DNA from: a bacterium
GTDB taxonomy: Bacteria > JAMCPX01
NCBI GenBank assembly: GCA_037439545.1
Contig: JBBIVV010000001.1
Span: 35,469 to 99,468 of the forward strand
Length of the DNA stretch: 64,000 nucleotides
Reading direction: 5' to 3'
The stretch's first letter is position 1; each line of letters starts with the position of its first letter. Both the position numbers and the translations under genes were made by a program. Positions 12,518 through 35,539 of this stretch are shown here, one piece after another. Below the pieces are notes generated by a model, which worked only from the letters and a program-made list of their open reading frames with translations, did not search any database and was not told the DNA's origin.

Positions 12518-13723
12518 ATGGCAAAAATAGACGGATTATTAAAATTACTGAAGGATAAGAAGGGGTCTGATCTTCACCTCGCGGTCGGTTCTCCTCCGAC
12601 ACTGCGCATCCACGGTGAACTCGAGAAAATGGAAGCAAGGGAAATCACACAATCGGATATGGAAGTCCTATTGTTTGAAATAATGGACAATGATAAAAAG
12701 GATCAATTCCTGAAGAATAAAGAGTATGATTTTGCGTATGAAGTAAAAGATATTGCACGGTTCAGGGTAAACGCCTTTTACCAGAGAAAGGGACTTGCGG
12801 CTGTTTTGAGGCTCATCCCGGCAATAATACCTAAATTTGAAGATCTCGATATGCCTGAGGTGATGAAGACTTTTTGTTTCTATGATAGGGGACTTGTGCT
12901 GGTCACAGGACCGACCGGCAGCGGAAAATCAACGACGCTCGCTGCGCTCATTGATTTTATAAACAGGAACTCTTCAGCCCATGTCCTGACCCTGGAAGAC
13001 CCTATAGAATTTGTGCATCAAAATGTCTCGTGTCTCGTAAACCAGAGACAGATCGGAGAGCATAGCCATACATTTGCGTCTGCACTGCGTTCAGCCTTGA
13101 GGGAGGATCCGGACGTTATCCTTGTCGGTGAAATGAGGGACCTTGAGACAATATCTCTCGCAATTACGGCCGCAGAAACGGGGCACCTCGTCTTCGGTAC
13201 ACTCCATACATCGAGTGCGGCAAAAACCGTAGACAGAATAATAGACGCTTTTCCGAAGGATCAGCAGGAACAAATAAGGACAATGCTCTCAGAATCGCTC
13301 AAGGCTGTCGTTGCTCAACAGCTTATAAAAACGGTAGACGGAAAAGGCAGGGTTGCGGCATTGGAGATTATGGTCGTCACGCCTGCAATCTCAAACCTCA
13401 TAAGGGAAGCAAAGACATTCCAGATACCCTCCATTATTCAGATAGGCAAGAAAGACGGCATGCAGATAATGGATCAGGCAATACTGGATCTTCTAAAGCT
13501 TAAAAAAATATCGGCACATGAAGCATACGCACATGCCAATAACAAGTCCATGTTCGAACAATACATGGCGAAAGGTACCAATATTTACATGGCTTACGGT
13601 ATAGAAACGGGCGCACAGGAAGTAGCACCCAATAAAGATATTTCCGGTAAACTAAATAAAGACGCAAAATCTGCCAACAAGATTCAAGAAGCAAACATGC
13701 AGAAGGGCGTTACAAGCCGTTAA
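12518..13723 (+). CDS. pilT: Type IV pilus retraction ATPase PilT/PilU family (with about 50 aa C-terminal extension)
   Basis: MAKIDGLLKLLKDKKGSDLHLAVGSPPTLRIHGEL..., Walker A GPTGSGKSTT, Asp box and His box; 401 aa versus about 345 typical. Confidence 0.85.
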   Translation: MAKIDGLLKLLKDKKGSDLHLAVGSPPTLRIHGELEKMEAREITQSDMEVLLFEIMDNDKKDQFLKNKEYDFAYEVKDIARFRVNAFYQRKGLAAVLRLIPAIIPKFEDLDMPEVMKTFCFYDRGLVLVTGPTGSGKSTTLAALIDFINRNSSAHVLTLEDPIEFVHQNVSCLVNQRQIGEHSHTFASALRSALREDPDVILVGEMRDLETISLAITAAETGHLVFGTLHTSSAAKTVDRIIDAFPKDQQEQIRTMLSESLKAVVAQQLIKTVDGKGRVAALEIMVVTPAISNLIREAKTFQIPSIIQIGKKDGMQIMDQAILDLLKLKKISAHEAYAHANNKSMFEQYMAKGTNIYMAYGIETGAQEVAPNKDISGKLNKDAKSANKIQEANMQKGVTSR

Positions 13724-13857: not shown

Positions 13858-15018
13858 ATGCCTATTTATGATGATTATAAAAATGAAAATATGAATAATG
13901 TGGTAAACAGGGCGTACAAGTTTGAGTCTAATAAACTCCGGGACAATCAACGCGTGAAAACTGAGAACCAGAGATTGAAAGACAATATAAAAGTTCATGA
14001 AACAACAACTGAAGAAGAGCTGAAGAAAAAAGAGTCATATTTTCGCTCAATTATCGAAGATTCCCAGGATATCATTACCGTTTTGAACAATGACGGGACC
14101 ATCCAATATGAGAGTCCTGCCATAGAACAGGTGCTTGGCTATAAACAGCAAGAACTAATAGGGAAAAATGTATTCGAATTTATTCACCCTGATGAGAGAC
14201 AGAGAGTTATTGAAATCTTCATAGAAGGTATCAAAGAAGCCGGCCACACAGAGGTAATGGAGCTGCGCTTTAAACATAAAGACGACTCATGGCGTTTTCT
14301 TGAAGCCAAAGCCAAGAACCTGCTCGATAAAGATGAAGTAACGGGTATTGCCATCAGTTCCAGGGACATCTCAGAACGTAAGAATTACGAGGACGAATTG
14401 CGTAAAAGAAACCATGAACTTAATTTACTGCATGCAGACTTTGAAGAACTGTTTTTAGGGACTGTCAAAGTCTTGTCGAACGCACTCGATGCCAAATCAA
14501 AATGGACTGCCGGACATGCAGAGAGGGTCACGAAATATGCAGTCGCAATCGGGAAAGAAATGGGCCTTGAGGAAAAGTCATTGAAGGAACTTGAGATTGC
14601 AGGACTACTGCATGATATAGGAAAAATGGAGACCTATATAGACCTTCTTGACAAGAAGGGAGAACTTACTGTCGAAGAAATAGAATTGATTCGGCATCAT
14701 CCTGTCAAAGGCGCAGAAATACTTTCTCCTATAAAACAATTGAAGGATGTTATTCTTGCCGTAAAAAACCACCATGAGTTTTATGACGGCACAGGTTACC
14801 CCGATGGTTTAAAAGGAGTAGAAATACCGTTTTATGCAAGGATTCTGACAGTTGCAGATTCAGTCGATGCAATGTCTTCGGACAGACCTTACAGGAAAAG
14901 CAAGGCAAAGAATGAAATCATTGCCGAGTTGACCAGAGGATCGGGCAAACAGTTCGATCCTGAAATTGTTCAAGTTTTTTTACGGATCTACCCCGCGATT
15001 GGCTGGGACAATAAATAA
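13858..15018 (+). CDS. PAS domain / HD-GYP domain protein (putative c-di-GMP phosphodiesterase)
   Basis: PAS-like region (IITVLNNDGTIQYESPAIEQVLGYKQQELIGKNVFEFIHPDE) plus HD-GYP (LLHDIGKM ... HHEFYDGTGYPDGLKG). Confidence 0.8.
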   Translation: MPIYDDYKNENMNNVVNRAYKFESNKLRDNQRVKTENQRLKDNIKVHETTTEEELKKKESYFRSIIEDSQDIITVLNNDGTIQYESPAIEQVLGYKQQELIGKNVFEFIHPDERQRVIEIFIEGIKEAGHTEVMELRFKHKDDSWRFLEAKAKNLLDKDEVTGIAISSRDISERKNYEDELRKRNHELNLLHADFEELFLGTVKVLSNALDAKSKWTAGHAERVTKYAVAIGKEMGLEEKSLKELEIAGLLHDIGKMETYIDLLDKKGELTVEEIELIRHHPVKGAEILSPIKQLKDVILAVKNHHEFYDGTGYPDGLKGVEIPFYARILTVADSVDAMSSDRPYRKSKAKNEIIAELTRGSGKQFDPEIVQVFLRIYPAIGWDNK

Positions 15019-15038: not shown

Positions 15039-15066
15039 TTGACATCAGTAAAATATTATTTATAAT
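15039..15066 (+). promoter_or_regulatory. Sigma70-type promoter TTGACA-N16-TATAAT upstream of the cytochrome c peroxidase gene
   Basis: TTGACA at 15039-15044, TATAAT at 15061-15066; GGAGG SD at 15115-15119. Confidence 0.5.
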
Positions 15067-15124
15067 CATTACAGAAAGAATTCGCACTGCAAACAGCCGT
15101 GTTACTTTTAAAATGGAGGTTTGT

Positions 15125-16204
15125 ATGAGGCATGTAAAATTGTTCATGTCGTTTATATTTTTGTTTATTCAGTCAGTTCTCATGATCAATGCGAATGCAG
15201 ATGGATTATCAGGTTCAGCTTTCACAACTATCAATATTCATTCCCTTGGCCCGCAAAGAATCGGTGATTTACGGTCTGTGCCGGTTCCTGTCGGCAATCC
15301 GCAATCGCCGATGAAGATTGTGCTTGGGAAACAGCTTTATTTTGATACGCGTCTGTCAAAGAACGACACGATAAGCTGTGCAACGTGTCATAGTCCGTTT
15401 ATGGGCTGGTCTGATGCAGGACCGACAAGTACAGGTATTCATGGTCAAAAAGGTCCTCGCAGGGCTCCACCTGTTTCAGATGCGGCTTACAGCTCTTTAC
15501 AGTTCTGGGACGGCAGGGCAGCAAGCCTTGAAGAGCAGGCAGAAGGTCCTATGCAGAACCCTGTGGAGATGGGCAATACGCTCGATAATGTAGTTAAGAC
15601 GCTGAACGGTATCCCCGGTTATGTAGAAGAATTCAAACAGGTGTTTGGAGAAACTCCTATCACTATAGAGCAGGTCGTTAAAGCCATAGCAGCATTCGAA
15701 CGTACTGTGGTGACAAGCGATTCCCCCTTTGACAGGTATGTCAAGGGTGATGATAACGCCCTTACGGATGACGAGAAAGAGGGTCTTGAGATCTTCAACG
15801 GTAAGGCGCATTGCACGGCATGCCATTGGGGCGGTTATTTCAGCGACGGAAGGTTCCATAACCTCGGTACTGCACAGACCGGCCCGTTAAAAGTGGATGA
15901 TGGAAGATATGCAATAACGCAAGATCAGGAAGATAGGGGCGCATTTAAGACGCCCACTATACGGGATGCTGTCAGACGCCCGCCTTATATGCACGATGGG
16001 TCCGAGAAGACGCTTGAAGAGGTAGTGGAGTTCTACAACAAGGGCGGTGGAGACGATCCGAATCTTGACCCATTGATTGTACCGCTTGGACTCTCAAATG
16101 AAGAGAAAAAAGATCTTGTCTTGTTTATGGAAGCGGCACTCATAAGCCTTAACCCCGGGGTTGCCGGAGTAACGCCTATTCCGCCGTCCGTATTGCCTAA
16201 ATAG
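15125..16204 (+). CDS. Di-haem cytochrome c peroxidase (CCP/MauG family)
   Basis: Two CxxCH motifs (CATCHSP and CTACHWGGYFSDGRFHN), signal peptide, about 360 aa; start moved to the second ATG (15125), preceded by GGAGG. Confidence 0.8.
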   Translation: MRHVKLFMSFIFLFIQSVLMINANADGLSGSAFTTINIHSLGPQRIGDLRSVPVPVGNPQSPMKIVLGKQLYFDTRLSKNDTISCATCHSPFMGWSDAGPTSTGIHGQKGPRRAPPVSDAAYSSLQFWDGRAASLEEQAEGPMQNPVEMGNTLDNVVKTLNGIPGYVEEFKQVFGETPITIEQVVKAIAAFERTVVTSDSPFDRYVKGDDNALTDDEKEGLEIFNGKAHCTACHWGGYFSDGRFHNLGTAQTGPLKVDDGRYAITQDQEDRGAFKTPTIRDAVRRPPYMHDGSEKTLEEVVEFYNKGGGDDPNLDPLIVPLGLSNEEKKDLVLFMEAALISLNPGVAGVTPIPPSVLPK

Positions 16205-16215
16205 AGGAGAACTCA

Positions 16216-17472
16216 ATGAAAAGAATTTATATTTTTATATTGATAATCTCTGCCATAACATTTTTTATGCCCGATAGAGCACACGCTATACCTGCTTTTG
16301 CAAGGAAATATGGATTTACCTGCACCATGTGTCATACTGCGTACCCGAAGCTCAATGACTTTGGACAGAGGTTCAGGGACAATGGCTATCAGATACCCGG
16401 GCAGGAGGGTTATGAAAAGAATGTTTTTGAAATAGCACCGCCAATATCTTTAAGAACCACGACAGGGTTGACCATCTATGATTCAAAGCAGGGAACAACG
16501 TCAGGTTTCAATATTTATGGTCTTGATCTGCTCGCCGCAGGAGTATTGCATAAAAACATATCGTTTTTACTCATCTATACTCCGAGGATTGACGAACCCG
16601 CGGCAGATTACACGGGTCCCCAGGGAACCAACCCATCACAGCTCGGTTCAATGGAATCGGCAAACATTGTGTTCAGCAATATCATCCATGACGCACTCAA
16701 TCTGAGGATAGGGAGATTTGAACCGGCTTATCAGGCAATCAGTTCGCACCGATCGTTCTATATTATGGAACCTTATGAGGTGTATACATTTACCACGCCT
16801 TCAAACAGCTTTGTATTTGCAGACAATCAAATGGGTGCCGAGGCTACGGGACATTTCAGGAGCGGATTTAAATACGCACTCGGTGTTGTTAATGGTAATG
16901 GCGGTAATCCTGATAACAACACCTATAAAGATGTTTATGCGAATCTGTTTCAGGTAATAGGAAAAGGCGATGGACAGAGTGCGGGTCAGAGAATAGGCGT
17001 GTTCGGTTATTACGGCTGGCAGCCTGCTGTTCTGCCGGGGCCTGCAGCTGCACCGACAGGTGAGACGAATGGCGGCGGCAACAAGCCTTTCTACAGGCTC
17101 GGTGCAGATTTAAGCTTTAATTGGTCTACATTAAATTTTGAGGTGTTATATATGGCAGGCGTTGATGATAAGGCGCTTAACACATTGGATCCTACGAAAG
17201 GCTATGTTTATTCAGGAGGGTTTGCAGAGCTTGATTGGGCATTGCTTACCAATAACGGTCTTATAGCCTCTATAATTTACAATTGGGTCATACCTCCGGA
17301 TTATGATAATGCCAGAACAGTCAACGCGTACTCGGTTCTTATGAGGTATTATCTTGGAGATTGGACAGCATACAACATCGCTTTACACGGCGAATATACC
17401 TACAGAGAAACGGGAAAGAACAGCCCACGAAGGGAAAATCTATTCACCGCATTAGTGGATTTTGCTTTCTGA
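16216..17472 (+). CDS. Putative Cyc2-like fused monohaem cytochrome-porin (outer-membrane beta-barrel with N-terminal CxxCH)
   Basis: Signal peptide, then a single CTMCH motif within about 15 residues of the predicted cleavage site (AIPAFARKYGFTCTMCHTAYPKLNDFGQRF); the remaining 370 aa are beta-rich, Gly/aromatic-rich and end in ...ALVDFAF (OMP C-terminal Phe). Confidence 0.45.
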   Translation: MKRIYIFILIISAITFFMPDRAHAIPAFARKYGFTCTMCHTAYPKLNDFGQRFRDNGYQIPGQEGYEKNVFEIAPPISLRTTTGLTIYDSKQGTTSGFNIYGLDLLAAGVLHKNISFLLIYTPRIDEPAADYTGPQGTNPSQLGSMESANIVFSNIIHDALNLRIGRFEPAYQAISSHRSFYIMEPYEVYTFTTPSNSFVFADNQMGAEATGHFRSGFKYALGVVNGNGGNPDNNTYKDVYANLFQVIGKGDGQSAGQRIGVFGYYGWQPAVLPGPAAAPTGETNGGGNKPFYRLGADLSFNWSTLNFEVLYMAGVDDKALNTLDPTKGYVYSGGFAELDWALLTNNGLIASIIYNWVIPPDYDNARTVNAYSVLMRYYLGDWTAYNIALHGEYTYRETGKNSPRRENLFTALVDFAF

Positions 17473-17474
17473 TG

Positions 17475-18497
17475 TTACTCGCTGAAGCTGTAACTTAATC
17501 CTCCAATCCAGATAACCTGCGGTGCGGTAGAGAAAGAGCCTGTTGTTACCCTGTCAGACACTTTCTTTGAAACGGACAATTCTGCAGCTATAGCAATCCG
17601 CAATCCCCTGACCGGCGTGTAGAATAGTATGCCCGGTGTAATGTATAAAGGATTTTGATTCCATGATACACTCGAAAATGATGGATCGGTCAATGAATAA
17701 GAGCTGTAGCTGTCTGTAAATTGCGATGTAAATTCGAGCATGGGTTCTATGTAATATTCCGGCAATGGGAATAAAAGCGAAATTCCCAGCAAGGTAAGTC
17801 CGTCTCCCCGTATACCCATAGCATATTTTCCAAGAGGAGGAATGAGATTGTTATCAGTCGAAGATAAGAGATTTTGTGTGTTATCCCACAGATAACCTAT
17901 ACGCAAGGTTGCAATAAGCGGGAATGACAGCTTCGATTTACTCATATCATAAGATGCAAGCAGACTCAGGGTATAGCTTGCTGCATTGCCATTGTATCCA
18001 ATGGCTCCAACCTTGCTGTAAAGCAGGGCTTCCGTCAGGATACCGATACTCAGGTCCGGTATTACTTCATAGCTTCCCTTTATACCTATCTTTAAGTCGC
18101 CGGAATAATGTAAGGATTGTGATGAAGTAACAATACTTGAAGAATCGAGAGAACCGAGAGATATTTCAAGATACTGAAGCGGTGCATACGATAGTGCTCC
18201 ATACACGGTATTGTTCTCGAGTTTATTGCCTTGTCCTAAAAAATTATTCTGCGATGCATACGCATCATATACGGCAATATTGGCCCTTCCTTTCGTTATA
18301 AACGCCGACGGGACATTGATAGAACCGCTCTGACCTGTGACAGAAACCTCTGTTCCCCTTGAAAGAGCGTTATGGCTCTCTATGGTATCAAAAGATGGGA
18401 CAGTGATTGAATTGTTTTGACCTGTTGCAGGAGACTCTGCGCCTGCAACCCCGGTAAATAGTATAAGACATAAAAGAGTAATGACATAGGTTTTCAT
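17475..18497 (-). CDS. Hypothetical secreted / outer-membrane beta-barrel-like protein
   Basis: Signal peptide MKTYVITLLCLILFTGVAGA; alternating hydrophobic pattern, Ser/Gly/Tyr-rich. Confidence 0.4.
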   Translation of the reverse strand: MKTYVITLLCLILFTGVAGAESPATGQNNSITVPSFDTIESHNALSRGTEVSVTGQSGSINVPSAFITKGRANIAVYDAYASQNNFLGQGNKLENNTVYGALSYAPLQYLEISLGSLDSSSIVTSSQSLHYSGDLKIGIKGSYEVIPDLSIGILTEALLYSKVGAIGYNGNAASYTLSLLASYDMSKSKLSFPLIATLRIGYLWDNTQNLLSSTDNNLIPPLGKYAMGIRGDGLTLLGISLLFPLPEYYIEPMLEFTSQFTDSYSSYSLTDPSFSSVSWNQNPLYITPGILFYTPVRGLRIAIAAELSVSKKVSDRVTTGSFSTAPQVIWIGGLSYSFSE

Positions 18498-18544: not shown

Positions 18545-19630
18545 TCAATGTTTGCTTTTATGTTTGTACCGGTGTTTGATTTGCGCAGGACTTTTCAAGG
18601 TATGACTATGTTTTGTGTTTATGTAATCCTTGGCCCACGGATCATCTTTGTAAGATTCTATCCAGTCAATCTTCTTGAAGTATTTGGAACAGTAAAAGCA
18701 GGAGAAGTAATCAAGTTCCGTAATACCGCCGTTCTTTATCAGGTCTATCTTATCTTTGTTGAATTTGTTAATCGCGTCTGCCCACATTTTATGCGCATCA
18801 AACAGGCTGACCGTGTTAAGGTCTGCTATTATATCGAGTTCGTCCGGCGACCCCGTGTAGCCGGATATCTGGCAGCAGAAGGTAAGCCTGCCTTTGTAAT
18901 CAATATTCGGCGAGTACATGGTGAGCGCCCTGCACTGGTAGAACAGGACGGGCTCATGATGTCCGAGAGAAAAGTTTATATCGATCTTCATTATGCTCTT
19001 TAACTTCTCGACCCTCTGTTCCGCTTCCCTGTATTGTTCGGGAGATAGTACGAGGTCCTGTTCGAATGCGAGGGGGGTCGGCTCAAGGTGCGCATAGAAA
19101 AGCCTTTTCAGACCGAGTTCAGATGCAAGGACCGCCATTTTTTCTATGTCATCGAAGTTTTTTTTATTTACCGTGATCTGAACGCTTATGTCGATGCCTT
19201 TTACCTTCAGTATGCTTATTGCCTGCATTATCTTTCTGAACGAGCCTTTTCCTCTGATATAATCATGGGTCTCGTCCGTTGCACCGTCTAAAGAAATAGA
19301 AATGCCGGATAGTTTACCGAGCCTGCCCGGTGATTCCGGGTCATTCAGCGTTTTCCATACAGAGGGAAAGTTCCATGCATTTGTGACAAAATGGTATGTA
19401 TATCCATACCGGACAACTGTATCTATGATCTTATCGAACTGGGGATGCAGCGTCGGCTCACCTCCGGTAAAGGCAATGTGCTTAAGGTTGTATGACTTTG
19501 CCTGCTTCAGGATCTTATCGAAAAGTTCGAGTGATATATAACTCTTCATATCGACCTTATCCCTTAAACAGTGCCTGCAGGATAGATTGCATTTATTGGT
19601 AAGCTCAAAGCTCATTTCATAAAATGACAT
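18545..19630 (-). CDS. Radical SAM / SPASM-domain protein (peptide- or protein-modifying maturase type)
   Basis: CNLSCRHC (CxxxCxxC) at residues 14-21; C-terminal Cys-rich region (FCCQISGY...CFYCSKYF) consistent with a SPASM/twitch auxiliary cluster domain; 361 aa. Confidence 0.7.
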   Translation of the reverse strand: MSFYEMSFELTNKCNLSCRHCLRDKVDMKSYISLELFDKILKQAKSYNLKHIAFTGGEPTLHPQFDKIIDTVVRYGYTYHFVTNAWNFPSVWKTLNDPESPGRLGKLSGISISLDGATDETHDYIRGKGSFRKIMQAISILKVKGIDISVQITVNKKNFDDIEKMAVLASELGLKRLFYAHLEPTPLAFEQDLVLSPEQYREAEQRVEKLKSIMKIDINFSLGHHEPVLFYQCRALTMYSPNIDYKGRLTFCCQISGYTGSPDELDIIADLNTVSLFDAHKMWADAINKFNKDKIDLIKNGGITELDYFSCFYCSKYFKKIDWIESYKDDPWAKDYINTKHSHTLKSPAQIKHRYKHKSKH

Positions 19631-19639
19631 GTTTTCTCC

Positions 19640-20599
19640 TTATTCCTTTATACCGTCTAACACGATCAAAGGATTTTTCAAAAGATCCCTGCCGCAGAAA
19701 CACCGGTAGGCTTTCGTCTGATGCAAGAGTATCTTTAATGCATGCATATGGCGGTCTGCATGTATCTTATTGAAAAATACCATAAGTGATTGAGGCAGAA
19801 GCATTGACATTGCCTGTGTTTCGCCGATGGGTTCCGTTATCGTTTTTTTGGTGCCTGTACGCTCAACGAAAAGTATAATATCAGGTGTGATACTATCAAT
19901 CGTTTTGAAATTTCCGTAGGGTATGGATGATTTTTTAAAAGGTGGTCTTGGCAGGCGCACATCTTTTAAGAGATGACTGAAATGCCGGATCGTATTTCCG
20001 GTTACATGGATATCTTTTTTAAAACCGATTGCTGATATTCTGTTCTTGCCCTGCTTCATGAGTACGGCATCATCGGCACACATCTTCCAGCCGTTGAAAG
20101 CAAGTCCGAGGGTAAGCGTCGTTTTTCCCGACATGCCCATTCCGCACACGAGGATAGAATGCCTGCCGTCGGTAACAGCTCCGGCATGCAGGTAATAGAG
20201 TTTATGATGCCTGAGGAGCTCTATGAGAGCTATTGTCAGAAAAATCGACACGAATTCAGTACCCCTTTTCAGGGTTGCAGAATCGACAAAAGCAATTGAT
20301 TTTCCTTCTTTTGCATGAACGATCATAAAAGTATTATCGTCCGATAATAACAGGGTATCATCATCAAGAATATATCCTTTTATTCTGCCGTAGGTAAATA
20401 ATAACGTAGTGCTCGCATCGGGTTTCAACGGTATCTTATGTGAAGTATAAAGTTTTATGTTTATATCATGAGGCTCGTTGCCGGATTGTGATGCGTTATA
20501 TCCCGCAAAGAATGCCTTTACAGTGCCGAGCAATACCTGTTCATCCGCTTCGATCAATATTCTTATTCCGGATATTTGAAATGAGAATCTTAAGTCCAT
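19640..20599 (-). CDS. HPr kinase/phosphorylase C-terminal-domain-like putative Ser/Thr kinase (HprK-related)
   Basis: LHAGAVTDGRHSILVCGMGMSGKTTLTLGLAFNGWKMCADDAVLM: P-loop (GxxxxGKT) in the HprK-like context (HAxAV...G.SG.GKSTLA...DD); 319 aa. Start overlaps the stop of the upstream nucleotidyltransferase. Confidence 0.55.
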   Translation of the reverse strand: MDLRFSFQISGIRILIEADEQVLLGTVKAFFAGYNASQSGNEPHDINIKLYTSHKIPLKPDASTTLLFTYGRIKGYILDDDTLLLSDDNTFMIVHAKEGKSIAFVDSATLKRGTEFVSIFLTIALIELLRHHKLYYLHAGAVTDGRHSILVCGMGMSGKTTLTLGLAFNGWKMCADDAVLMKQGKNRISAIGFKKDIHVTGNTIRHFSHLLKDVRLPRPPFKKSSIPYGNFKTIDSITPDIILFVERTGTKKTITEPIGETQAMSMLLPQSLMVFFNKIHADRHMHALKILLHQTKAYRCFCGRDLLKNPLIVLDGIKE

Positions 20600-21294
20600 T
20601 ATGAAAAAAGCCTTCTCGCAAGTTCTAATCTATCAATTTTGCCGATATCGATCCATAAGCCATTATGCACATATCCGGCAATAAGCCCGTTATTTTTAAG
20701 CAGCCCGGGATACATATGCACGGTTGTGGAAGGCTGTTTAATATTTACCGGTATATAATCCATTACGGATGGTTTTACGAATTGAATCCCGGTAAATATA
20801 TAGGGGGAAGTATCGGGGGAGGGGGTAAAAAGGCTTTTAATATATCCCTTACGGTCGAGATAGATGTTTGCGATATTAACCTCATTCTGTTTTGCTTTAT
20901 AGAGCACCATGACGGCATCGGCACCTCTGTCGTTCAACAGTGGAGGCAGGAGAGAAAGGTCGATGTCGAATAAAATATCGCTGTTTATGAGATAAAATGG
21001 CTCATCAAGGAATTTTTTTGCCCACAACAGTGCACCTGCAGTCCCCTGAATCTCAGGCTCATAGGAATAATGCAGATCTATTCCCTGTATTGAGCTGTTA
21101 CCGAGTTTCTCCCGGATCATTTCTCCAAGATGATGAAGGTTTATGATTACACTTTTCACGCCCGCCTTTTTTAGGGCGGCAAGCGTATGTTCGATGACCG
21201 GTTTGCCGTTTATATCGACAAGAGGCTTTGGAATGCTTTCAGTGATGGGCTTAAGCCTCGTTCCAAAGCCGGCTGCAAGTATCATTGCTTTCAT
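20599..21294 (-). CDS. Sugar-phosphate nucleotidyltransferase family protein
   Basis: MKAMILAAGFGTRLKPITESIPKPLVDINGKPVIEHTL: canonical NTP_transferase N-terminus (GxGTRL). Track ORF uses an upstream TTG (21318); the ATG at 21294 fits the family N-terminus. Confidence 0.75.
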   Translation of the reverse strand: MKAMILAAGFGTRLKPITESIPKPLVDINGKPVIEHTLAALKKAGVKSVIINLHHLGEMIREKLGNSSIQGIDLHYSYEPEIQGTAGALLWAKKFLDEPFYLINSDILFDIDLSLLPPLLNDRGADAVMVLYKAKQNEVNIANIYLDRKGYIKSLFTPSPDTSPYIFTGIQFVKPSVMDYIPVNIKQPSTTVHMYPGLLKNNGLIAGYVHNGLWIDIGKIDRLELARRLFS

Positions 21295-21516
21295 GATTAT
21301 CCTATTAACATAAAACAATTAAAACAAAATAACAACAGAGAGCCTATGCCAGGGTGCGCATGGAATGCGGTTGCATGTTTGTGAGCTGTGGCTCGATCGG
21401 TTTCTTGCAAAAAAATATATATTATGATATAAGTTAAAAACTTCTTTGTTGAAGCATTATCATTAAAAATACATGCCATGGTGCATGAAAGTATAACACT
21501 ATACGGAGGTGTCGGT

Positions 21517-34393: not shown

Positions 34394-35539
34394 ATGGATA
34401 AAAAAGACAAAGAAACAAAAAAAACAATAGCAGATGAGCTGTTGGAAGATAATTTCTTTAAGCCTCCCATGGATGATGTGATTGATGATGAGGTGCCGGA
34501 AAAACATGGTGTTTCGGATGCAGGAGAGGAAGGACCTGAAAAAAGTGACAGCAGTCTTCTCTTTGATGAGTTTCTTAAATCGCCCGTTGAAATATCACCT
34601 GAAGAAACTTCTGAATTAACGATAGAGGAAAGGCCTGTTATCCCTCAGACTCGGGAGGCAATTCCCGACATACATCCCACGGTATCTGCATCCCGGTCTG
34701 CAGCAGTTCTAAAGACTGCAGGACCTTCCGGAAGCAAGATGAAGTTGATAATAGCATCTCTCGGAGGCGGTGCGGTCCTTTTATTAGCAGTTGCCGGATA
34801 TTTTTATTTAGGTCATAAATCCACTGATACGACCCGGAGCACTGCCGTAACAGGCTCACAAACTATTGTCATGACTCATGAAACACCGCCTTCCGGAGTA
34901 CAGCCTCCTGAAGTTACCCGTGAGAGCGCCAAACCTGCACCATTGCCTGACGGCAATCATGAAAACAACCCGACGGTCAAGGAACAGACACCGCATCAGC
35001 CAGGTCAGCAGGTAGCTGAGAATGTTCCTCCTGTTCAAACGTCTCAGCCTGCCCAGACAATCCAGGAAGCGTCAAAACAGTTTGAAGTTGCACTCGAGAA
35101 GATCAAGACAAAAGCAGCATTGGACAGGGTAAAACGGATTGGAGCTTCAATAGATAAATCATTAAATTTCGATATCAAGGAAAATACGGCGAACAATACC
35201 CTGTATAACCTTTATGTCGATAAAATATATTCCTCGGAAGGCGAGGCTACAGCGGACAATCTTAAACTTATGGTAGCCAATATATCGAACGCTTCGGTTA
35301 TTAAGGCTGATGGAGGATACCGGATACTTATAGGTAAATACAACTCAAGAGGACCCGCCGATACTGATATGAAGAATATAGAATCAGCAGGACTTAAAGG
35401 GGTAATAAAAGAAGCTACCAGTAAAGTTTCAACCTATAATATAAGAGTTTTTCCTTTCAAATCATCGAAAGATGCCAAAGAGTATATTTCGAAAGTGAGA
35501 AAATTAGCGTTCAAGGCAAGCTTTTCAGAAATAAAATAA
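34394..35539 (+). CDS. Membrane-anchored protein with acidic N-terminus, Pro/Gln-rich linker and C-terminal SPOR-like repeat(s)
   Basis: TM segment LIIASLGGGAVLLLAVAGYFYL; low-complexity PPEV/QPGQQ region; C-terminus GGYRILIGKYNSRGPADTDMKNIESAGLKGVIKE and TYNIRVFPFKSSKDAKEYISKV resemble SPOR (RNP-like peptidoglycan-binding) motifs. Confidence 0.45.
   Translation: MDKKDKETKKTIADELLEDNFFKPPMDDVIDDEVPEKHGVSDAGEEGPEKSDSSLLFDEFLKSPVEISPEETSELTIEERPVIPQTREAIPDIHPTVSASRSAAVLKTAGPSGSKMKLIIASLGGGAVLLLAVAGYFYLGHKSTDTTRSTAVTGSQTIVMTHETPPSGVQPPEVTRESAKPAPLPDGNHENNPTVKEQTPHQPGQQVAENVPPVQTSQPAQTIQEASKQFEVALEKIKTKAALDRVKRIGASIDKSLNFDIKENTANNTLYNLYVDKIYSSEGEATADNLKLMVANISNASVIKADGGYRILIGKYNSRGPADTDMKNIESAGLKGVIKEATSKVSTYNIRVFPFKSSKDAKEYISKVRKLAFKASFSEIK

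Follow-up and report, generated by a model that had tools for sequence, protein, structure and literature searches.

The window analysed here is a stretch of 64,000 nucleotides (nt) of chromosomal context with 43% GC, taken from contig JBBIVV010000001.1 of the bacterial assembly GCA_037439545.1 (GTDB lineage JAMCPX01; positions 35,469 to 99,468). It contains two adjacent genes on the same strand: a gene for a dihaem protein of the CCP/MauG family and, directly downstream, a gene for a 418-amino-acid (aa) protein which we assign on its motifs and alignments to the Cyc2 superfamily of fused cytochrome-porins. A preliminary description of this DNA had reported the pair, the 11-nt gap between its members and a TTGACA-N16-TATAAT promoter in front of it, and all three were confirmed (Table 1). 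The dihaem open reading frame (ORF) is open from 15113 to 16204 and its likely start is the GGAGG-preceded ATG at 15125, giving a product of 359 aa with a signal peptide; AGGAGG-like sites lie upstream of the dihaem gene in most orthologues. No c-type cytochrome gene other than the pair was found in the 64-kb window.

Table 1. Positions of the two-gene cassette and its features in the window (position 1 is the first nucleotide of the window)
Feature	Position	Strand	Basis
Sigma-70-type promoter, TTGACA-N16-TATAAT	15039..15066	+	12/12 match
Putative ribosome-binding site of the dihaem gene, GGAGG	15115..15119	+	Read from sequence; 6 nt before ATG 15125
Gene for 359-aa secreted dihaem CCP/MauG-family protein, predicted Tyr/His (MauG-like) type	15125..16204	+	Pfam CCP_MauG
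First CxxCH (CATCH, aa 85–89), N-terminal peroxide-binding haem	15377..15391	+	Invariant
Second CxxCH (CTACH, aa 230–234), six-coordinate haem	15812..15826	+	Invariant
Tyr304, predicted axial ligand of the six-coordinate haem	16034..16036	+	Alignment to MauG Tyr294 and MbnH Tyr
11-nt spacer with AGGAG, putative ribosome-binding site of the second gene	16205..16215	+	Stop ends 16204, next ATG 16216
Gene for 418-aa Cyc2-family fused cytochrome-porin	16216..17472	+	Motif, CxxCH, fold, profile alignment
Predicted signal peptide, aa 1–24, ...AHA/IP	16216..16287	+	Read from sequence
Cytochrome region, aa 25–76: AIPAFARKY-GFT-CTMCH-TAY-PKL...NGYQIPGQ	16288..16443	+	Cyc2 consensus motif match
Single CxxCH (CTMCH), aa 36–40	16321..16335	+	C36, C39, H40 invariant
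Predicted 16-strand beta-barrel, aa 77–418, ending in beta-signal VDFAF	16444..17469	+	

Assignment of the 418-aa protein to the Cyc2 superfamily

The 418-aa protein had no match in the Pfam and NCBIfam libraries, and sequence and profile searches of the PDB returned nothing significant; a check for homology to soluble monohaem cytochromes, made over Pfam, NCBIfam and PDB sequences, was equally without a match. Its N-terminus is hydrophobic and is followed by a single CTMCH, as the preliminary description had recognized, although this motif lies 11 residues past the predicted cleavage site and not the approximately 15 given there. The Gly-, Tyr- and Asn-rich composition described for the remainder was borne out (G 10.0%, Y 7.2% and N 7.2%), as was the ending in FAF, which forms part of the C-terminal VDFAF.

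Keffer et al. (2021; PMC8406198) define Cyc2 by a consensus, AxPxFAR[Q/K][T/Y], upstream of the CxxCH and by PxL four residues downstream of it; the first of these motifs they describe as exclusive to Cyc2. The window protein has AIPAFARKY at aa 24–32, with five residues (KYGFT) between FAR and the first Cys, and PKL at aa 44–46, four residues after the CxxCH; the Cyc2-like architecture first proposed for it was in this respect well founded. Across relatives, the pattern PxF[AST][RKH]-x5-CxxCH was present in 114/120 close homologues and in 97/103 full-length distant homologues. PxL is not constant in the clade, most close relatives having TKL, so that the strict motif with Pro was found in 14 of the 120; K45 and L46 are invariant. 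At 418 aa, the protein exceeds the Cyc2 minimum of 365 aa. It thus shares with Acidithiobacillus ferrooxidans Cyc2, Mariprofundus Cyc2PV-1 and Leptospirillum Cyt572 the signal peptide, the single N-terminal CxxCH with both flanking motifs, a length of > 365 aa, a 16-strand barrel with OprP/OprO as structural relative and a C-terminal aromatic beta-signal (PMC8406198).

Of the candidates scored in a word-seeded search, 1106 were homologues at E ≤ 1e-3, and an exhaustive HMMER search of 50%-identity representatives gave 2689 clusters. The best 120 of the 1106 are 415–438 aa in length with 61–96% identity; all are annotated as hypothetical and every one (120/120) has exactly one CxxCH. The position of this motif is invariant, with C36, C39 and H40 retained throughout a 25-member alignment and the form CxMCH in all 25. 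Mean identity among orthologues across phyla was 31% for the signal peptide, 78% for the cytochrome segment and 59% for the barrel; nine aromatic residues of the porin are invariant (Y58, Y121, Y190, Y220, Y241, Y265, Y330, Y378 and W383).

For homology to characterized Cyc2 proteins the evidence is indirect but strong. End-to-end profile alignment (hhalign) with unnamed homologues encoded in c4/cox clusters had a probability of 100% (E 2.3e-62, 397 columns), and the cytochrome segment matched a Methylocystis Cyc2-like protein in a pairwise BLASTP comparison (E 1e-13). Because it combines the defining motif, an invariant single CxxCH and full-length alignment to c4/cox-linked Cyc2 homologues, the 418-aa protein is assigned to the Cyc2 superfamily as a fused cytochrome-porin. 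A tblastn search of plasmid sequences gave N-terminal matches only, in Ralstonia and Methylocystis; Ralstonia has been named as a genus rich in Cyc2 homologues (Keffer et al., 2021; PMC8406198). One database protein of 143 aa (P0247) begins like a CCP (..GYVEEYRAVFG..) yet matches aa 251–339 of the porin, and is probably a chimeric or frameshifted gene call.

The AlphaFold2 (AF2) model of the protein is a barrel of 16 strands structurally like OprP/OprO, in agreement with the beta-barrel and the 16 strands expected in the preliminary description; its predicted local distance difference test score (pLDDT) was 68, and below 50 in the haem segment. In this model a monohaem c-type segment of about 50 residues would be joined to the periplasmic end of an OprP-like barrel. 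Short conserved connections alternate with long variable ones, which fits the usual porin topology with both termini periplasmic, and the predicted periplasmic turns are the most conserved parts of the barrel (conservation 0.79, versus 0.62 for the extracellular loops), a distribution that is consistent with a periplasmic docking surface. A clade-specific insertion, PRIDEPAADY... (aa 123–141; 16582–16638), lies in predicted extracellular loop L2 with P123, R124, D126 and P128 invariant; the Cyc2 homologues linked to c4/cox that were compared by hhalign do not have it.

The partner enzyme has a Tyr at the position of the Met ligand

The product of the upstream gene matches Pfam CCP_MauG (PF03150) with an E value of 3.8e-61, and database sources annotate it as 'cytochrome c peroxidase'. 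The preliminary description had likewise named it a dihaem cytochrome c peroxidase; membership of the CCP/MauG family stands, but the enzyme departs from the canonical type in having a MauG-type Tyr where the Met ligand would be. This residue, Tyr304 in the segment EEVVEFYNKGG, aligns with Tyr294 of MauG (numbering counted from the printed alignment), which we take to be the axial ligand of the six-coordinate haem of MauG, and with the Tyr of the MbnH motif IYSEGG; it also aligns with the final Met, residue 258, of the Nitrosomonas CCP segment ..AVETM, presumably the corresponding haem ligand in that enzyme. Tyr304 is invariant in 70/70 orthologous partner enzymes, whereas conservation does not extend to the Met of PYMHDG. 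In Geobacter CcpA the loop TGHGWQ carries a His, presumably the distal ligand by which canonical enzymes are closed at rest, and the aligned residue here is Ile105. Residues Q138, P142, E148 and M149 of the distal pocket and W128 between the haems do not vary among orthologues. The six-coordinate haem is predicted from the alignment to be His/Tyr-ligated as in MauG, MbnH and BthA, and the peroxide-binding haem would be without the distal His that closes canonical enzymes, with a possible consequence for its resting state.

Family-profile matches placed the enzyme closest to the canonical bacterial cytochrome c peroxidases (bCCPs; E 1.6e-75), followed by MbnH (approximately 1e-53) and MauG (approximately 1e-37), with BthA also matched; the best single-sequence match in the PDB was to a canonical bCCP as well (E 3.4e-66). 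For the C-terminal third, MbnH was the best match (E 5e-10). The top NCBIfam matches were the MauG and MbnH models (TIGR03791, 256.9 bits versus a cutoff of 443.85; TIGR04039, 220.4 bits versus 362.85), and because both scores are below the curated cutoffs, the enzyme is judged to be an orthologue of neither. A contrast between Met-His and Tyr-His ligation has been described within this superfamily, in which the Tyr/His dihaem enzyme BthA forms bis-Fe(IV) and turns over H2O2 when given an electron donor (PMC6405878).

With the canonical bCCPs (Paracoccus, Pseudomonas, Nitrosomonas, Geobacter CcpA and MacA) the enzyme shares its periplasmic location and domain layout, the CCP_MauG fold, two CxxCH motifs, the inter-haem Trp and a Gln/Glu peroxide pocket, in addition to the best overall sequence match; it differs in the invariant Tyr in place of the Met ligand of the high-potential haem, in the Ile in place of the distal His of Geobacter CcpA, and in its electron donor, which would presumably be the adjacent haem-porin and not a free small cytochrome or cupredoxin. 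With MauG, MbnH and BthA it has in common the paired CxxCH motifs, the Tyr at the MauG Tyr294 position, the conserved pocket and the inter-haem Trp, and with MauG and MbnH a gene that lies beside the gene of a dedicated partner protein; in this case, however, the partner is an outer-membrane haem-porin and not an amine dehydrogenase precursor or MbnP, and the enzyme is nearer in overall sequence to the canonical bCCPs. It may best be described as a bCCP-like scaffold with a MauG-type haem pair rather than as a canonical peroxidase.

Conservation of the gene pair

A locus scan with one genome per species gave 80 loci, all in metagenome-assembled genomes (MAGs), which by label comprise Aminicenantes (19), Bacteroidota (16), Zixibacteria (10), Ignavibacteriota (8, one of them labelled Chlorobiaceae) and other Acidobacteriota (6), the remainder being Planctomycetota, Calditrichota, Krumholzibacteria, Eisenbacteria, Fibrobacterota and others; at least 10 phyla are represented overall. 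The carriers are uncultured and mostly of anoxic-sediment lineages. Adjacency was counted over 84 loci, three of which have no upstream DNA, and in 81/81 scorable loci the dihaem gene is directly upstream of the porin gene and on the same strand, with an intergenic spacing of about 10–15 nt in most. The pairing extends to homologues of only 38–44% identity, and three homologues on long contigs have a CCP_MauG gene immediately upstream with otherwise unrelated neighbours. The pairwise distances obtained for one protein correlate with those for the other (r = 0.75). One Bacteroidales MAG (MFD00032.bin.2.138) carries two complete cassettes on different contigs (L080 and L081).

There is no third conserved gene, as no Pfam family was represented by more than 8 of the 140 genes that flank the pair in 75 loci, and no c4 cytochrome or oxidase gene is adjacent to the porin in any clade member. 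The cassette is a self-contained two-gene operon. The electron-transfer or peroxide-detoxifying module suggested in the preliminary description is, as a presumed function, much more plausible because this adjacency is conserved in all scorable loci; the use of the porin in extracellular iron oxidation, as far as this was meant in a respiratory sense, does not follow, the clade having none of the c4 or oxidase neighbours of distant Cyc2 genes.

Those distant genes are arranged differently. Four homologues at 28–38% identity and a Methylocystis gene are followed by at least one c-type cytochrome gene, mostly of the dihaem c4 type; the Methylocystis Cyc2-like gene is followed by three, and two of the distant c4-linked homologues also have aa3-oxidase genes nearby. 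This is the classical Cyc2-Cyc1-oxidase layout, in which the c4 neighbour is presumed to be the electron acceptor of Cyc2. Loci L088, L090, L091, L092 and L093 hold distant Cyc2 homologues in cyc2-cytochrome c4 clusters with or without COX1-4; the c4-type cytochrome of L092 carries a fused OmpA domain. Because the pairing with the dihaem gene stops below 38–44% identity, where c-type cytochromes follow instead, the window clade is considered to be a distinct Cyc2 branch that has taken on another periplasmic partner in the adjacent position.

In comparison with the named Cyc2 proteins, therefore, the window clade has an upstream gene for a Tyr/His dihaem enzyme in place of the c4 cytochrome (Cyc1) gene, alone or with an oxidase, that lies downstream in the others; its barrel has a mean identity of 59%, as against whole-protein identities of 15–53% among named Cyc2 (Fig. 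S7 of PMC8406198); its CxxCH is always CxMCH in the 25 aligned members; it carries the insertion in loop L2; and its carriers belong to uncultured, mostly anaerobic-sediment phyla and are not known iron oxidizers. The porin-cytochrome complexes MtrAB, MtoAB and PioAB resemble the pair in combining an outer-membrane barrel with c-type haem for moving electrons across or at the outer membrane.

A candidate redox chain and its alternatives

We tentatively favour, as an account that may quite possibly be right, a two-protein redox chain in which the haem of the porin, probably fed by Fe(II), supplies a Tyr/His dihaem enzyme that reduces H2O2. We are led to this reading because the gene beside cyc2 elsewhere in the superfamily encodes its presumed periplasmic electron acceptor, a genomic role that the dihaem enzyme fills here; because the cassette needs no further redox gene to be complete; because the peroxide pocket is intact; and because the predicted periplasmic turns are the most conserved parts of the barrel. 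On reaction with H2O2, the enzyme, diferric at rest, would enter a high-valent state of the bis-Fe(IV) type, the porin haem would re-reduce this state one electron per step, and Fe2+ or another small reductant entering the pore would re-reduce the porin haem. Such a module would remove periplasmic peroxide at the cost of external Fe(II), keeping both Fenton reactants apart, and would conserve no energy. Beyond the observed gene identities, architecture, strict pairing and Tyr substitution, the chain takes in contact between the two proteins, the direction in which electrons flow and the identity of the substrates as Fe(II) and H2O2, all of which we infer.

Several points weigh against this chain. 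Interaction and electron transfer between the two proteins are steps that we infer; MauG and MbnH, both Tyr/His enzymes of known physiological role, modify a protein encoded nearby and are not scavenging peroxidases; and Fe(II) as the donor would be an extrapolation from distant, biochemically tested Cyc2 proteins that are < 30% identical. The regions upstream of 70 orthologous cassettes revealed no conserved operator of the PerR/Fur/OxyR type, and so no regulatory tie to peroxide or iron. Because the AF2 model of the porin is only moderate, the placing of its haem against the barrel and the assignment of turns are tentative, and outer-membrane proteins commonly have periplasmic turns that are more conserved than their surface loops. 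The AF2 model of the dihaem enzyme is poor (pLDDT 58), too poor for a fold search, so that this enzyme was classified from its sequence alone.

The main rival, which we hold to be somewhat unlikely, is that the pair is a maturase and its substrate: the enzyme, via bis-Fe(IV), would oxidize or cross-link Trp, Tyr or Lys residues of the porin and the modified haem-porin would be the working part, as MauG acts on pre-methylamine dehydrogenase and MbnH on MbnP. The invariant Tyr at the MauG Tyr294 position argues for this, as do the MbnH match of the C-terminal third and the rank of MauG and MbnH as top NCBIfam models; known MauG-type enzymes act on proteins encoded beside them (PMC6405878), the strict 1:1 pairing and the co-duplication are in keeping with an enzyme that has a substrate of its own, and the invariant aromatics of the porin (eight Tyr and W383) are available as targets. 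On the other hand, the enzyme is overall far nearer to the canonical peroxidases (approximately 1e-75) than to MbnH or MauG and scores below the cutoffs of both models, and the porin was dissimilar to MbnP and amine dehydrogenase subunits in the Pfam and PDB searches. A modified porin would, moreover, still need a periplasmic redox partner, and none is encoded nearby in 75 loci, while distant Cyc2 genes keep theirs adjacent. A related joint reading, which we consider unlikely, would make of the pair either an H2O2-driven oxidizing machine across the outer membrane, passing oxidizing equivalents from the bis-Fe(IV) state of the enzyme through the porin haem to substrates within the pore or outside it, such as Fe(II), Mn(II) or humic and phenolic compounds, or an enzyme that installs a protein-derived cofactor in the porin; either way, the porin would not be a respiratory iron oxidase.

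Two further explanations fit less well than the redox chain or the maturase. Electrons could flow outward, the dihaem protein serving as a periplasmic carrier, as proposed for Geobacter MacA, that passes them through the haem-porin to extracellular Fe(III) or another acceptor. The Tyr/His haems of MauG have low potentials, the solved structures nearest to the enzyme include Geobacter MacA and CcpA, and the carriers of the cassette are mostly from anoxic-sediment lineages, all of which would suit this direction; it is nevertheless improbable, given that the full peroxide-activating pocket (Q138, P142, E148, M149 and W128) is invariant where a simple electron carrier would need none, that the 75 loci have neither an inner-membrane quinol oxidase nor another carrier linked to the cassette, and that solid Fe(III) is out of reach for a lone haem on the periplasmic side of a narrow 16-strand pore (Keffer et al., PMC8406198). 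Very improbable is an ordinary respiratory Cyc2 iron oxidase that stands by chance beside an unrelated housekeeping peroxidase. The Cyc2 motif and fold are present, and such genes in Aminicenantes, Krumholzibacteria and Zixibacteria are already treated in metagenome studies as markers of iron oxidation; this explanation is, however, already contradicted by adjacency in every scorable locus over at least 10 phyla with unrelated flanks, the diversity of which also argues against the pairing being an artefact of one sampled mobile element. The two proteins co-vary, no clade member has a c4 cytochrome or oxidase beside it as the distant homologues do, and the barrel is unusually conserved by comparison with named Cyc2.

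Implications for the reading of cyc2 genes

Cyc2, detected through FeGenie, is the main marker by which metagenomes are searched for microbial iron oxidation. MAGs of Aminicenantes and Krumholzibacteria have already had Cyc2-like genes flagged in this way and read as iron-oxidation potential, and the same reading has been given to the Cyc2 cluster 3 genes that dominate the DeMMO subsurface communities (including Zixibacteria and Ignavibacteriales); a Zixibacteria MAG from the DeMMO communities is among the loci of the present set. The kind of protein, Cyc2-like, was known in these lineages, and what is added here is the strict operon, the MauG-type ligand and their meaning for the interpretation of this type of cyc2. 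In the open-access literature searched we found no report of a pairing of Cyc2 with MauG or a peroxidase, or of an absence of respiratory partners.

The clade is large, as the 1106 homologues among the candidates scored indicate, and stands always beside a peroxide-activating dihaem enzyme and never beside respiratory cytochromes or oxidases, a context that points to a defence or oxidative-chemistry module and not to energy metabolism. Metagenomic calls of 'iron respiration' from this type of cyc2 may be wrong; if the reading as an oxidizing machine or an installed cofactor were true, its use as a marker of lithotrophic iron oxidation would be mistaken in Aminicenantes, Zixibacteria, Ignavibacteria, Bacteroidota and Krumholzibacteria. 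The partner would be the first MauG-type (Tyr/His) enzyme dedicated to an outer-membrane haem protein, and the pair offers a simple two-protein system for probing how Cyc2 hands electrons to a periplasmic partner. There is also an annotation gap, in that neither Pfam nor NCBIfam has a model for the porin family, whose members are listed as hypothetical proteins.

Promoter and neighbouring genes

The promoter in front of the cassette is the sole perfect site of the region, in which the total count of promoter-like sites is not above that of shuffled sequence. TTGACA-like -35 elements also lie upstream of many orthologous cassettes, which suggests that the pair forms its own transcription unit. 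No terminator-like site was found after the 418-aa gene, where a convergent gene ends at 17475, and an Rfam scan of the window returned nothing. Overlapping the -10 element, the sequence TTATAATCATTACAG (15053–15067, + strand) has a 12/14 match to a PerR/Fur-type 7-1-7 box; as a conserved PerR/Fur site it was rejected, such boxes (with ≤ 3 mismatches) occurring in 11% of 70 orthologous upstream regions versus 7% of shuffled ones.

Directly upstream of the promoter is a gene for a PAS and HD-GYP (HD_5) protein (13858–15018, + strand), likely a cyclic di-GMP phosphodiesterase, which is itself preceded by a gene for a PilT-like ATPase (12518–13723); neither is conserved beside the cassette elsewhere. 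The convergent gene downstream (17475–18497, - strand) encodes a secreted beta-rich protein of 340 aa with no Pfam or NCBIfam match, which may be another outer-membrane barrel, and is retained beside the cassette only in L005, the closest relative (77% by tblastx). Beyond it, on the same strand (18545–21318), follow in a row genes for a radical SAM/SPASM enzyme, an HprK-related-kinase-like protein (weak matches to TIGR04352/04355) and a nucleotidyltransferase-like ORF, which together look like a peptide-maturation cluster.

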